Virus record (IMG/VR): IMGVR_UViG_2802429219_000016
DNA: 31,583 nucleotides
Reading direction: 5' to 3' (one strand)
From: a virus
Taxonomy: Duplodnaviria; Heunggongvirae; Uroviricota; Caudoviricetes
The notes below the pieces were generated by a model, which saw nothing but the letters and a program-made list of their open reading frames with translations, was not told the origin of the DNA and ran no database searches. This document shows, one piece after another, positions 1 to 31,583 of this stretch. Every line of letters begins with the position of its first letter. The stretch's first letter is position 1. The position numbers were made by a program, and so were the translations under genes.

Positions 1-525
1 TTATACAGCTTTCTTTACATCGTTTTCTCTTACAGGGAAATTATGTTCTTTGCCTTCATACTGAGACAAAATCTCTCTCACTTTTTCCGGTGGTAATGCC
101 TGAAGAGTTTGCAGGGTTTTCTGTTGCTCCACAGTAATCCCTAATGCCTCTAATGCCTTATCTTTACTGACAATTGTAGGCATAAGTCCTTTAATCCCTG
201 CTACACGAATGATCTCCACAGCTGCGGCCTGCTCATCTGGTGTTAAGAAGCTCATTGCATAAATTAGCCTCTCATCAACTGTATGGGCGATTGATGTATG
301 CACTGGTTTATCAGAAAGTGAGGCTCCTTTAATGGCCCTGCGTGTTTCTTCTGGCAGACTGTTGATGTGATACTCATAAGCGACACCTTTCCCACCGTGA
401 CGCTGACGTTTTACCCAATCTTCCGCCACAGCTTTCCTGGTAATGTTAGTCGCCAACTTTGGTACACCAGGCATCCCTTCCAGCTCTTTCGCATTAAACC
501 ATTCTTTGATTTCAAAAGACATCAT
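1..525 (-). CDS. c: Mu c-like lysogeny repressor (174 aa)
   Basis: Leftward ORF divergent from ner-A-B. N-terminus ([26 protein letters not shown]) is paralogous to the N-terminus of the transposase at 940 ([26 protein letters not shown]), as in Mu c/MuA. Stop codon is at window position 1-3. Confidence 0.8.
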   Translation of the reverse strand: MMSFEIKEWFNAKELEGMPGVPKLATNITRKAVAEDWVKRQRHGGKGVAYEYHINSLPEETRRAIKGASLSDKPVHTSIAHTVDERLIYAMSFLTPDEQAAAVEIIRVAGIKGLMPTIVSKDKALEALGITVEQQKTLQTLQALPPEKVREILSQYEGKEHNFPVRENDVKKAV

Positions 526-710
526 TTAAAATCCTAGTGATTTCAATAGAGACAAAATAAATTCATATAAAAATCATGCCGTTATATGAAATCACGGCAA
601 ATCCTTTCAAATCACTGTTGATTTGGAAGTGATTCCACACTACATTGCACGATATGCCGTGAGCTACTTTATAGAGTAGCTCACGGGGGAATCTGAAAGG
701 ATTACATGAA
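526..710. promoter_or_regulatory. Divergent early promoter/operator region between c and ner
   Basis: AT-rich 185-bp gap between divergent genes. Four AGTGATTTCA-like motifs (538-546, 587-595 rc, 608-616 rc, 629-637) and a perfect 11-bp-arm inverted repeat at 658-685. ner RBS GAAAGGA at 695-701. Confidence 0.5.
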
Positions 711-932
711 ATGCATATGAATAAAAGAACTAACCGCCAAGATTGGCACAGAGCTGACATCGTTGCAGAGCTACGAAAACGCAATATGTCACTAGCTGAA
801 TTGGGAAGATCTAATCATCTTTCGTCTTCAACATTAAAAAATGCTTTGGATAAGAGATATCCGAAAGCGGAGAAAATCATTGCAGATGCACTGGGAATGA
901 CACCGCAAGATATTTGGCCGTCTCGATACTAG
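711..932 (+). CDS. ner: Ner-like DNA-binding early regulator (73 aa)
   Basis: Size and position match Mu ner; sequence [14 protein letters not shown]...LAELGR...STL.NAL...PK.E.IIA.ALG..P..IWPSRY fits the Ner/Nlp family. RBS 9 nt upstream. Confidence 0.85.
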
Positions 933-939
933 GTGCGCT

Positions 940-2928
940 ATGAAAGAATGGTATACAGCAAAAGAGTTGCTCGGTTTGGCAGGTTTACCAAAGCAAGCCA
1001 CTAACATTACACGTAAGGCACAAAGAGAAGGCTGGGAGTTCAGGCAGGTTGCAGGGACTAAAGGTGTATCATTTGAATTCAATATCAAATCATTCCCTGT
1101 CGCATTACGTGCTGAAATTCTGTTGCAACAAGGGAGAATTGAAACCAGTCAGGGGTATTTTGAAATCGCCCGCCCCACGCTGGAAGCCCACGATTACGAT
1201 CGCGGGACACTGTGGAGCAAATGGGATAACGCCAGCGATTCCCAGCGCAGACTTGCTGAAAAATGGTTGCCTGCGGTTCAGGCTGCAGACGAAATGCTGA
1301 ACCAGGGGATTTCAACGAAAACGGCTTTTGCGACCGTTGCAGGGCATTACCAGGTCAGCGCATCCACTTTGCGGGACAAGTATTACCAGGTACAGAAGTT
1401 TGCGAAGCCTGACTGGGCGGCTGCACTTGTTGATGGACGTGGTGCATCCCGTCGCAATGTTTACAAAAGTGAATTTGACGAGGATGCCTGGCAGTTTCTG
1501 ATTGCAGATTATCTGCGACCGGAAAAACCCGCCTTCCGCAAATGTTATGAGCGTCTGGAACTGGCAGCACGCGAGCATGGCTGGTGTATTCCCTCCCGCG
1601 CCACGGCCTTTCGCCGGATTCAGCAACTGGACGAGGCAATGGTTGTTGCCTGTCGTGAAGGTGAACATGCACTGATGCATCTGATACCGGCACAGCAGCG
1701 AACTGTGGAACACCTGGACGCCATGCAGTGGATCAACGGCGACGGTTATCTGCATAACGTCTTTGTACGCTGGTTTAACGGTGATGTGATCCGCCCGAAA
1801 ACATGGTTCTGGCAGGATGTGAAAACCCGAAAAATTTTGGGCTGGCGCTGCGATGTGAGCGAGAACATTGATTCAATTCGCCTCTCGTTCATGGATGTTG
1901 TGACTCGCTACGGTATCCCGGAGGATTTTCACATCACCATTGATAACACCCGTGGTGCAGCGAATAAATGGCTGACGGGGGGCGCGCCCAATCGTTACCG
2001 CTTTAAGGTGAAAGAGGACGATCCAAAGGGACTGTTTTTACTGATGGGCGCAAAAATGCACTGGACAAGCGTTGTTGCCGGTAAAGGCTGGGGCCAGGCA
2101 AAACCTGTTGAACGTGCTTTCGGTGTTGGTGGGCTTGAGGAATACGTTGATAAGCATCCGGCACTGGCTGGCGCATATACGGGGCCAAATCCGCAGGCAA
2201 AACCTGATAACTATGGCGACCGTGCTGTTGATGCAGAGCTGTTTCTGAAAACCCTTGCTGAAGGTGTTGCGATGTTCAATGCCAGAACAGGCCGTGAAAC
2301 AGAAATGTGCGGGGGCAAACTCTCGTTCGATGATGTTTTCGAGCGTGAATACGCCAGAACGATTGTGCGTAAGCCAACCGAAGAACAAAAACGGATGCTG
2401 TTACTGCCTGCTGAGGCGGTGAACGTTTCACGCAAAGGCGAGTTTACGCTAAAAGTTGGCGGCTCCCTAAAAGGCGCAAAAAACGTTTATTACAACATGG
2501 CGTTAATGAATGCCGGCGTGAAAAAAGTTGTGGTCAGGTTTGATCCGCAGCAGCTACACAGCACGGTTTATTGTTACACCCTGGACGGTCGATTTATCTG
2601 TGAAGCGGAATGTCTGGCACCTGTTGCATTTAATGATGCTGCGGCAGGCCGTGAATATCGCCGCCGCCAGAAACAACTGAAATCTGCAACTAAAGCAGCC
2701 ATTAAGGCGCAGAAACAAATGGACGCGCTGGAAGTTGCTGAACTGCTGCCGCAGATAGCCGAACCAGCAGCACCAGAATCAAGGGTTGTTGGTATTTTCC
2801 GGCCTGTGGGTAACACAGTACGGGTTAAATATCGCACCCCCGATGATAAATACGAACCCGCTCGTGATGAATATCTGAATCAGTCACTGGATATTCTGGA
2901 ACAGAAAAGACGTAAAAAAGCCATTTAA
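940..2928 (+). CDS. A: Mu-type DDE transposase A (662 aa)
   Basis: Length close to MuA (663 aa); N-terminal domain shared with the repressor; NGDGY and ITIDNTRG-type catalytic-core motifs; directly follows ner as in Mu. Confidence 0.9.
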
Positions 2929-21877: not shown

Positions 21878-21977
21878 CCTGTCTCAGCGATTCAGCATTC
21901 AGTACCTGGAACAGCTGCCCCTGCGGCAGCTGTTCCGCCTGATAAAGCAACTGGAGAAACAGCATGGCAACAGGTAA
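21738..21977 (+). CDS. Alternative-frame extension of tail chaperone (candidate programmed-frameshift product)
   Basis: Frame +1 relative to 21482..21877 is open from 21738 and overlaps the last 140 nt of the chaperone gene, ending just inside the tape-measure start. Confidence 0.4.
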   Translation, partial: NSCECSTRQTLSLSARKPLRWMKCLRRWQRGGELMPLAAALMNLLVNLSQRFSIQYLEQLPLRQLFRLIKQLEKQHGNR

Positions 21978-29854: not shown

Positions 29855-30403
29855 ATGATGCACTTAAAAAATCTTACGGCACAAAACCCTAAAACAATTG
29901 AGCAATACCAGCTGGCGCGACAGCATAAATTTTTATTGTGGCTGTTCTCCGATGATGGTCAGGAATGGCACGAAGCCCAGGAAAAATTTCAGCCAGACAC
30001 TCTGAAAGTTATTTATGTTGAAACTGGCGAGGTGGTCTGGGTCGGAAAAGACATCACCTCAATCTGCCCGGAAAATAAAAGCGTGATTGAGCTACCGGAT
30101 ATTACCGCCAATCGTCGCATTGAGGCGTCGGGTTACTGGTTCTACCGCAATGATGAATTTGTTTTTGACTACAAACTTAAAGCGGAAGACGAGCGTGATG
30201 CCCTGTTAAAACAGGTCAGCATCATGACCAGCGAATGGGAAAAAGACCTGCTGCTGGGATTAATCAGCGACGAAGACAAAGAAAAGCTGAAAGCCTGGCG
30301 TATATACGCGAAATCGCTGCAGGCGCTGGATTTCAGCACCATCACTGATAAAACCTCATATAACGCCATCAACTGGCCGGAGCGTCCCGATGCCGCAGCT
30401 TAA
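29855..30403 (+). CDS. U: Tail fiber assembly protein (Tfa/U family) (182 aa)
   Basis: Size, AT-rich composition and sequence character typical of Tfa chaperones; directly follows fiber gene. Confidence 0.75.
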   Translation: MMHLKNLTAQNPKTIEQYQLARQHKFLLWLFSDDGQEWHEAQEKFQPDTLKVIYVETGEVVWVGKDITSICPENKSVIELPDITANRRIEASGYWFYRNDEFVFDYKLKAEDERDALLKQVSIMTSEWEKDLLLGLISDEDKEKLKAWRIYAKSLQALDFSTITDKTSYNAINWPERPDAAA

Positions 30404-31583
30404 AGGTGTGATTAAAACGCCCACGGGAGAACCGCTGGGCGGCGCAACCATTACACTGACCTCCCTGCACAACCGTGCAGGGATTCTGAAAAGTGTTTTC
30501 AGCCATGTCACCACACAGAACGGGGAATATGACTTCCCCGTTCTGCCGGGTGTGTACAGCGTTCGCCTGACGCAAAGCACACAGCGCCTTTCAGAAATCG
30601 GTGTCATCCGCGTTTATGAAGATTCAGCGGACGGTTCGCTGAATGATTTTCTGGGTGCAACCGATATTGACCTGCGCCCGGAAGCCCTGAAGAAATTCGA
30701 GGAACTGGCGCAACAGGCGCAGCAAAGCGCAGAAAAAGCAGGAGAACACGCCACCGCTGCTGAACAGGCCCGTCAGGATACAGAAACGCTCGCTGGGGAA
30801 ATACAGCAGGATGCAGAAGAAATTGCGGGTAATGTACAGAAAGCTGAAGAACTGGCCTCTGAAACAAACCAGAATGCCGCCCGCGCAGAGCAGGCCGTCA
30901 AGGATGCCGACCTGATAGTCCAGAAGGCGGTCGATAAACTTGGTGAAGCTGCAACGCTGACCGGCGAGGCAAAAGCCAGCGCCGAAGCGGCAGCAAAAAG
31001 CGAGCAGAGCGCGAAACAGCACAGGGACGAGGCGCAACGGATAGTTGATGACCTGAAGGGAAGCAATGCTTCCACGACGCAAAAAGGTCTGGTGCAACTC
31101 TGTAGTGATACAGACAACGACAGCGAAGAACTGGCAGCCACACCAAAAGCCGTCAAAGCCGTCATGGACGAAACGAAAACAAAAGCGCCGCTGGACAGCC
31201 CGGCATTCACCGGCACGCCCACCACACCAACCCCACCGGACGATGCTGCCGGTCTGGAAACAGCGAACGCGGCATTTGTCCGCAAACTGCTCGCTGCACT
31301 GGTTGACTCGTCACCGGAAGCCCTGGACACGCTGAACGAGCTGGCAGCGGCGCTGGGCAATGACCCGGAGTTTGCGACAACAATCATGAACGCGCTGGCG
31401 GGTAAACAACCACTCAGTGACGTGTTAACCGCAATCAGTAATCTGGAAGAACGGGCAGATAACCTTCTGTGCTTTAATCAGGACGGGAATGCTTCACTGT
31501 CTCCGCTGTCAGAAAAAGCCCGGTCACTGCTGGCACAGGCCACAGTGGAAGCCATGCGTAATGAGCTTGAGCTGAAAAGCGCA
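30390..31583 (+). CDS. Side tail fiber protein, lambda Stf-like (5' part only, at least 398 aa; runs off the window)
   Basis: Not in the ORF track because no stop occurs before the window end. Hand translation from ATG 30390 is open to 31583. N-terminus resembles the prophage tail fibre N-terminal domain (VYEDS.DG.LNDFL); also KGLVQLCSDTDNDSEELAATPKAVKAVMDETKTKAPLDSPAFTGTPT and DSSPEALDTLNELAAALGNDPEFATTIMNALAGKQP as in lambda Stf / P2 H fibers. Confidence 0.8.
   Translation, partial: MPQLKGVIKTPTGEPLGGATITLTSLHNRAGILKSVFSHVTTQNGEYDFPVLPGVYSVRLTQSTQRLSEIGVIRVYEDSADGSLNDFLGATDIDLRPEALKKFEELAQQAQQSAEKAGEHATAAEQARQDTETLAGEIQQDAEEIAGNVQKAEELASETNQNAARAEQAVKDADLIVQKAVDKLGEAATLTGEAKASAEAAAKSEQSAKQHRDEAQRIVDDLKGSNASTTQKGLVQLCSDTDNDSEELAATPKAVKAVMDETKTKAPLDSPAFTGTPTTPTPPDDAAGLETANAAFVRKLLAALVDSSPEALDTLNELAAALGNDPEFATTIMNALAGKQPLSDVLTAISNLEERADNLLCFNQDGNASLSPLSEKARSLLAQATVEAMRNELELKSA

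Follow-up and report, generated by a model that had tools for sequence, protein, structure and literature searches.

The window (the whole stretch of DNA that was analysed, 31,583 nucleotides) starts at the stop codon of a leftward ORF, c, whose 174-aa product carries an N-terminal winged-helix Mu DNA-binding domain according to Pfam. An intergenic region of 185 bp separates c from the rightward gene ner, which is followed by the transposase gene A (940-2928, + strand, 662 aa); beyond its N-terminal domain, the remainder of the 662-aa A protein was recognised by Pfam as Mu transposase (Table 1). The initial annotation had taken this arrangement for a divergent c/ner control region in a Mu-like element, and both the ORF order and the Pfam domains agree. 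The N-termini of c and A are paralogous (55% identity across 60 aa), and residues 1-65 of A were invariant among D108-type loci, except for an A55T change in two of them. In Mu, the transposase N-terminal domain binds the operator region, which is used as a transpositional enhancer.

Further along the window, one inverted repeat (21908-21936, perfect 12-bp arms, 5-nt spacer) lies just 5' of a 623-aa ORF at 21964 and another (30509-30552, 19-nt arms, 6-nt spacer) lies past an ORF ending at 30403; both may be terminators. The D108-type prophage of E. coli elppa5 carries a 1-nt insertion in the A-run at window 624/625. Its c gene has a broken reading frame at the 5' end, and the annotation gives a truncated CDS of 429 bp.

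Table 1. Features of the c-ner control region and its flanking genes (positions in the window; "." marks features without strand)
Feature	Position	Strand	Basis or remark
c repressor gene, D108 immunity type	1-525	-	ORF; Pfam HTH_Tnp_Mu_1, E 3e-51
Copy 0, TTGATTTCA, candidate repressor/transposase half-site in O1	506-514	+	inside c codons 4-7
Copy 1, GTGATTTCA (site 1 of the initial annotation), candidate O1 half-site	537-545	+	motif match
IHF-like core, AATCATGCCGTTA	572-584	+	1 mismatch to WATCAANNNNTTR
Hypervariable segment	579-630	.	spans sites 2 and 3 and reaches into the start of site 4 (629-630)
Copy 2 (site 2), GTGATTTCA on the - strand (TGAAATCAC on +, exact reverse complement)	587-595	-	
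Copy 3, GTGATTTGA (site 3), candidate O2 half-site	607-615	-	motif match
Candidate Pe: -35 TTGATT 618-623, 17-bp spacer, -10 TACATT 641-646	618-646	+	relaxed scan, 8/12
Copy 4, GTGATTCCA (site 4), candidate O2 half-site inside the Pe spacer	629-637	+	
Ner operator as assigned from sequence: arms CCGTGAGCTAC 657-667 and GTAGCTCACGG 676-686, spacer TTTATAGA 668-675	657-686	.	
Candidate Pc: -35 TTCAGA 697-692, 18-bp spacer, -10 TATAAA 673-668	668-697	-	9/12
ner RBS AAAGGA (696-701) and ner gene (711-932, 73 aa)	696-932	+	Pfam HTH_35, E 1e-28
Transposase A, 5' part (N-terminal domain)	940-1140	+	Pfam HTH_Tnp_Mu_1, aa 8-141

The control region is of the D108 type by sequence

When the region was aligned with Mu, D108 and other Mu-like prophages, as the initial annotation had proposed, it proved to be of the D108 type and unlike Mu. 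By megablast, positions 1-1000 matched phage D108 (GQ357916, 340-1339) without gaps over 1000 bp at 98.7% DNA identity, phage Mu_3F6 at 98.8% and Shigella phage SfMu at 85.6%. The regulatory proteins follow the same pattern: Ner is identical to D108 Ner at 73/73 residues (100%), and c is identical to D108 c at 172/174 residues (98.9%) and to Mu c at 29%. The two c differences are Y50 and A80 in the window versus N50 and V80 in D108. At codon 50 (window 376-378), tyrosine is found in the window, in Mu_3F6, in SfMu and in 11/11 E. coli prophages checked, and asparagine in the GenBank D108 sequence; speculatively, N50 may be a laboratory mutation of the sequenced D108 stock, possibly a temperature-sensitive one.

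Gene order, spacing, TGATTT-type repeats and Ner-operator arms in D108 are all as in the window. Nine substitutions separate the two sequences in 580-675, and eight of these nine are transitions within 579-630 with G/C in the window and A/T in D108. Unlike this early region, the late genes of D108 do not resemble those of the window past about 7.3 kb. From about 7341 to 31583, megablast matched the window to none of Mu, D108 and SfMu; its late region shares about 96% identity with Mu-like late-gene modules found in E. coli prophages (for example, STEC1575). ETEC1732, STEC346 and others combine the window's late module with a Mu-type c-ner region (about 90%) a few kb away, which points to an exchange of the immunity module. 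A search with the c protein and the Ner-operator pattern in a genome collection with one genome per species gave no match, and the prophage is evidently absent there.

TGATTT-type repeats flank an IHF-like core

Motifs resembling GTGATTTCA are clustered at 506-637, where five copies occur with at most one mismatch. At this threshold the 31.6 kb contain 26 matches, where shuffles predict 8.2. Five of the 26 fall within 132 bp, for which the window-wide rate predicts 0.11 (hand-calculated Poisson P(>=5) of about 1e-7). A looser core, TGATT[TC], occurs seven times in 480-720. The four sites in both orientations that the initial annotation had described are there, but they are joined by at least one further good copy and by weaker half-sites, and the register given for its first site (538-546) is 1-2 nt off: the true position is 537-545, with site 3 at 607-615. 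An operator model with four sites is also too simple, given the fifth copy, the loss of site 2 in variants and the polymorphic leading G of site 4.

The copies fall into a left group of two in direct orientation (506-514, 537-545) and a right group in both orientations (587-637), and between the two lies the IHF-like core, preceded by an A+T tract (552-571, 90% A+T). This layout mirrors the O1-IHF-O2 arrangement of Mu, and the positions of the repeats and of the IHF-like core are compatible with c at O1 and O2 and IHF between them. Kukolj and DuBow reportedly found in 1992 that IHF binds between O1 and O2 of D108. At the place of the window's core, the SfMu type has another IHF-like core, TTTCAAATAATTA, also with one mismatch.

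The copies differ in conservation. Copy 0, with which a 31-bp direct repeat opens (507-536, 538-567), was invariant in 30/30 sequences, although coding constraint acts there as well. Copy 1 kept its core GATTTCA in all 30, with variation at its first two bases, and copy 3, which forms an inverted pair with 619-624 (CAAATCA-N4-TGATTT), kept AAATC in all 30, with variation at position 614 in 4. Copy 4 is polymorphic at G629 (15 G, 11 A) and reads AAGATTTCA in the SfMu type. In 4/26 D108-type sequences site 2 reads CAAAATTG(T/C) instead, and in the SfMu type CAAGATGCT; since it is not conserved, it is probably weak or dispensable.

This uneven conservation bears on the question of whether c recognises these repeats at all. 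Conceivably, c reads another pattern within 500-640, and the TGATTT-type repeats are a by-product of an A+T-rich, curved region bound by IHF or H-NS, or of promoter elements. Variants have indeed lost site 2 or a core base in site 1, 3 or 4 while the DNA-binding domain of c is invariant, one TGATTT copy is simply the -35 element of Pe, and the conservation of copy 0 is uninformative because it lies in coding sequence. Nevertheless, the clustering goes far beyond chance, the repeat cores form conserved islands in an otherwise hypervariable segment, and their placement around the IHF-like site mirrors the Mu O1-IHF-O2 block. Moreover, the CTTTT repeats of Mu-type prophages, which we take to be the known repressor-binding repeats, likewise form conserved islands between variable linkers. 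We regard this alternative as improbable and keep the repeats as candidate half-sites for c.

Candidate promoters

Pe is the putative early promoter of ner-A-B, at a position that we infer from the sequence. Its predicted start lies near 653, its -35 element is itself a TGATTT half-site, and both hexamers were invariant in 30/30 sequences, the SfMu type included. A strict sigma-70 promoter scan of the region called no site, Pe falling below the threshold. Because repeat copies overlap the -35 element and the spacer of Pe, bound repressor would occlude this promoter.

On the opposite strand, the -10 element of the candidate Pc is placed inside the Ner spacer. It is not conserved in the SfMu type (TGCAAA), which makes this assignment weak and our confidence in it low. 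The predicted leftward start for Pc is near 661, with an alternative near 574. The best sigma-70-like match is another one, TTGAAA-18-TATAAC at 581-610 on the - strand (10/12), which points to c and lies in the hypervariable zone. Several haplotypes carry a changed -10 there, and this match could be a second repressor promoter.

The palindrome upstream of ner

The perfect inverted repeat that had been noticed at 658-685 was borne out and extends one base further on each side, to 657-686 (CCGTGAGCTACT-TTATAG-AGTAGCTCACGG, 12-bp arms, 6-bp spacer). A scan of the whole window for close inverted repeats with a 10-bp seed gave only six, this one included, and no further match to its half-site CCGTGAGCTAC was found in the window, even with 1 mismatch. 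All other D108-type sequences, D108 included, read CCGTGAGCTAC-TTTATAGC-GTAGCTCACGG, with 11-bp arms and an 8-bp spacer. The difference resides in A675, which is unique to the window among 26 D108-type sequences (the others have C) and is also present in the SfMu type and in the Mu block ACTTTATAGA. The C to A change converts an 11-N8-11 into a 12-N6-12 repeat, and it would also remove the G at -14 of the candidate Pc. The arms were identical in 16/16 sequences retrieved by BLAST, including the SfMu type with its 85% overall identity, and only the spacer varied; in 14 further loci, fetched by the arm pattern itself, arm identity is given by construction and is uninformative.

Tolias and DuBow in 1986, and Kukolj and colleagues in 1989, are said to have footprinted the D108 Ner operator as two 11-bp inverted repeats 8 bp apart, and the palindrome at 657-686 is presumably this operator as defined by DuBow's laboratory. 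The initial annotation had proposed the palindrome as a site for either Ner or the repressor. Only the former part holds: judged by its match in sequence, the palindrome is the D108 Ner operator and not a repressor site. That a biochemically defined D108 Ner operator exists is stated in the title of Benevides et al.

A role mainly at the RNA level seems unlikely. In such a reading, the palindrome would form a stem-loop at the 5' end of the ner-A-B transcript and stabilise this RNA or modulate its translation, or else it would be a terminator. With a Pe start near 653 the transcript would open with a hairpin of 13 pairs and a 4-nt loop (RNA MFE of 654-720, -25.5 kcal/mol), and variation confined to the loop or spacer among relatives would also suit a hairpin. 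However, the arms are strictly invariant, as expected of a protein site, and carry no compensatory changes, and the D108 Ner operator is reported to have been defined biochemically at this palindrome. An intrinsic terminator was rejected since neither strand has a T-run (flanks GGGGAATCTG and, on the other strand, CATATCGTGC) and the terminator scan did not call it. RNA and protein roles are not mutually exclusive, and the hairpin could have a secondary role. Least probable, and very much so, is a third repressor operator bound by c in place of Ner: position alone is compatible with it, as O3 of Mu overlaps the Ner-binding region, but the palindrome contains no TGATTT-type half-site, is unrelated in sequence to the O1/O2 repeats, and co-occurs with an invariant Ner in both the D108 type and the SfMu type, between which c differs by 10%.

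Immunity specificity and comparison with related switches

Of the Mu operator repeat CTTTTYNRWW, Mu 860-1060 contains 6 copies and the window at 480-720 none; conversely, TGATTY has 7 copies in the window's control region and none in the Mu operator. The proposal that the motifs differ from the Mu operator consensus is thus confirmed, and the operators are not identical to those of Mu. Between c and ner, blastn of the window against Mu found no similarity apart from one 10-bp block, ACTTTATAGA, the sole block common to both at an equivalent place, just before ner. With a repressor only 29% identical and no Mu-type repeats, the control region does not match the Mu-immunity operator, and these two differences predict an immunity specificity distinct from that of Mu. 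The initial annotation had proposed a distinct specificity, which is supported with respect to Mu (c identity, different repeats) but is not new, as c and Ner are those of the D108 type; its reading of the region is essentially right.

The absence of the Mu operator repeat fits the known heteroimmunity of D108 and Mu. So does the finding that E. coli 22KM0354 (NZ_CP151071.1) carries a D108-type (924137-925076) and a Mu-type (3621693-3622684) c-ner region on one chromosome; in this strain, two heteroimmune Mu-like phages occur together as a natural double lysogen.

The switch of the window and that of Mu are alike in a leftward c, in repeated repressor sites around an IHF site with the early promoter inside O2 (candidate elements in the window), in a Cro-like Ner site before ner formed by an inverted repeat around an A+T spacer, and in the paralogous N-termini of repressor and transposase. 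They differ in the repeat unit (CTTTTYNRWW vs TGATTTSA), the Ner protein and the Ner half-site. SfMu and SfMu-type E. coli prophages belong to the same immunity family as the window: at about 85% overall DNA identity, their c is 90% identical without any change in the DNA-binding region, Ner carries a single substitution, the Ner arms and Pe hexamers are identical, and the equivalent of position 675 is A, as in the window. Unlike the window, they lack site 2 and have another IHF-like core and another Ner spacer, TTTGCAGA. The lambda CI/Cro switch similarly pairs a maintenance repressor with a small Cro-like protein competing at divergent promoters, but its proteins are unrelated to the winged-helix Mu domain and to Ner, and it differs from the D108-type switch of the window, in which each protein would have a separate operator, IHF would be needed and the operator would double as a transposition enhancer.

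A hypervariable segment inside the control region

We aligned 25 D108-type regions (the window, D108, Mu_3F6, 11 E. coli prophages and 11 IMG/VR or metagenome loci). These control regions are 98-99.8% identical over 940 bp, and yet 24/52 positions (46%) are polymorphic in 579-630, compared with 4% in c, 2% in ner and 2.5-7.5% in the remaining intergenic parts. Diversity (pi) reaches 0.12 in the segment against 0.023 at 106 four-fold degenerate sites, and a 52-bp sliding window from 573, which nearly coincides with the segment, contains 18 haplotypes versus 2-5 clear of the control region. Prophage pairs with no difference in 825 flanking bp had 2-4 differences in 579-630. Many site pairs in the segment display all four gametes, and transitions predominate. 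The variation is not uniform: the AAATC/GATT cores and the Pe hexamers stand out as conserved islands between variable linkers, and site 2 is wholly lost in some strains.

Several explanations were rejected or gained no support. Residues 1-79 of c and 1-65 of A are essentially invariant across D108-type prophages; the operator and its binding proteins are thus not co-diverging, which rules out co-evolution between them. Relaxed constraint alone does not account for a pi five times that of four-fold sites, and pairs without flanking differences still differ in the segment. RNA structure was discarded as well: RNAalifold gave a covariation term of -0.8 kcal/mol for 579-630, and in a hairpin at 577-599, 95% of cells pair but shuffles reach the same value in 398/500 cases. 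As for escape from CRISPR, a sensitive blastn search of 572-640 against 5,426 complete E. coli genomes returned 40 prophages only, with no spacer-like matches. Inspection of 579-630 by eye found no Dam or Dcm hotspot motif (GATC, CCWGG).

A comparable pattern was found in Mu-type prophages (98-99% identity), in which 24 of the 39 variable sites of 992 bp fall in Mu 902-906 and 939-991; these are linkers around the IHF site, and the CTTTT repeats and the Ner site are fixed. As the Mu-type linkers behave alike, the variability would be a general property of the Mu-family switch. Our tentative interpretation, held with less than even confidence, is that 579-630 evolves non-neutrally, either as a mutational hotspot or under recurrent selection, and that this is general to the switch/enhancer of the Mu family. 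The segment runs from the 3' half of the IHF-like site across the linkers that separate the O2 half-sites and into the Pe spacer, and the DNA-binding domains of c, Ner and transposase are fixed while it varies. Recurrent selection would retune early-promoter strength, repressor occupancy or enhancer geometry; it could, for instance, tune Pe via the upstream A/T-rich region and the spacer.

Discussion

The window very probably carries the early regulatory switch of a Mu-like prophage of D108 immunity, with c acting at O1/O2 and Ner at the palindrome. By its motifs, c would bind TGATTT(C/G)A-type half-sites in two operators. O1 (about 500-560) would contain two direct copies at a distance of 31 bp and O2 (about 587-640) copies in both orientations, and the two would flank the IHF-like site at 572-584. 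Repressor on O2 would shut off ner-A-B. During lytic growth, the Cro-like Ner would bind the two CCGTGAGCTAC arms just 3' of the Pe start, over the presumed Pc, and so lower both divergent transcripts. By analogy with Mu, the O1-IHF-O2 block presumably doubles as a transpositional enhancer, as the transposase N-terminal domain is paralogous to the repressor domain. The sequence itself shows the identity to D108, the clustering of the motifs, the pattern of conservation and the lack of Mu-type repeats. Which protein touches which bases, where the promoters lie and the enhancer role are points that we infer.

Work from 1986 to 1994 gave the sequence of the D108 repressor/Ner switch and dissected it biochemically, and its heteroimmunity with Mu is textbook knowledge. 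For the sequence of the D108 control region, Mizuuchi et al. 1986 appears in the reference list of PMC3820752. The system is thus already known: it is the D108 control region, here as a natural prophage variant, and the finding as initially formulated adds nothing new. Its use is for annotation, as it marks the window as a prophage with D108 immunity and a late region that is not that of D108.

The hypervariable segment is the new and unexplained part, and the only one worth following; no description of a hypervariable operator segment was found in the literature searched. If its evolution is non-neutral, the segment would provide a natural allelic series for the set-point between lysis and lysogeny and for enhancer tuning, with the regulators unchanged. 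It could also be a rare case in bacteria of a mutational hotspot in protein-bound regulatory DNA.
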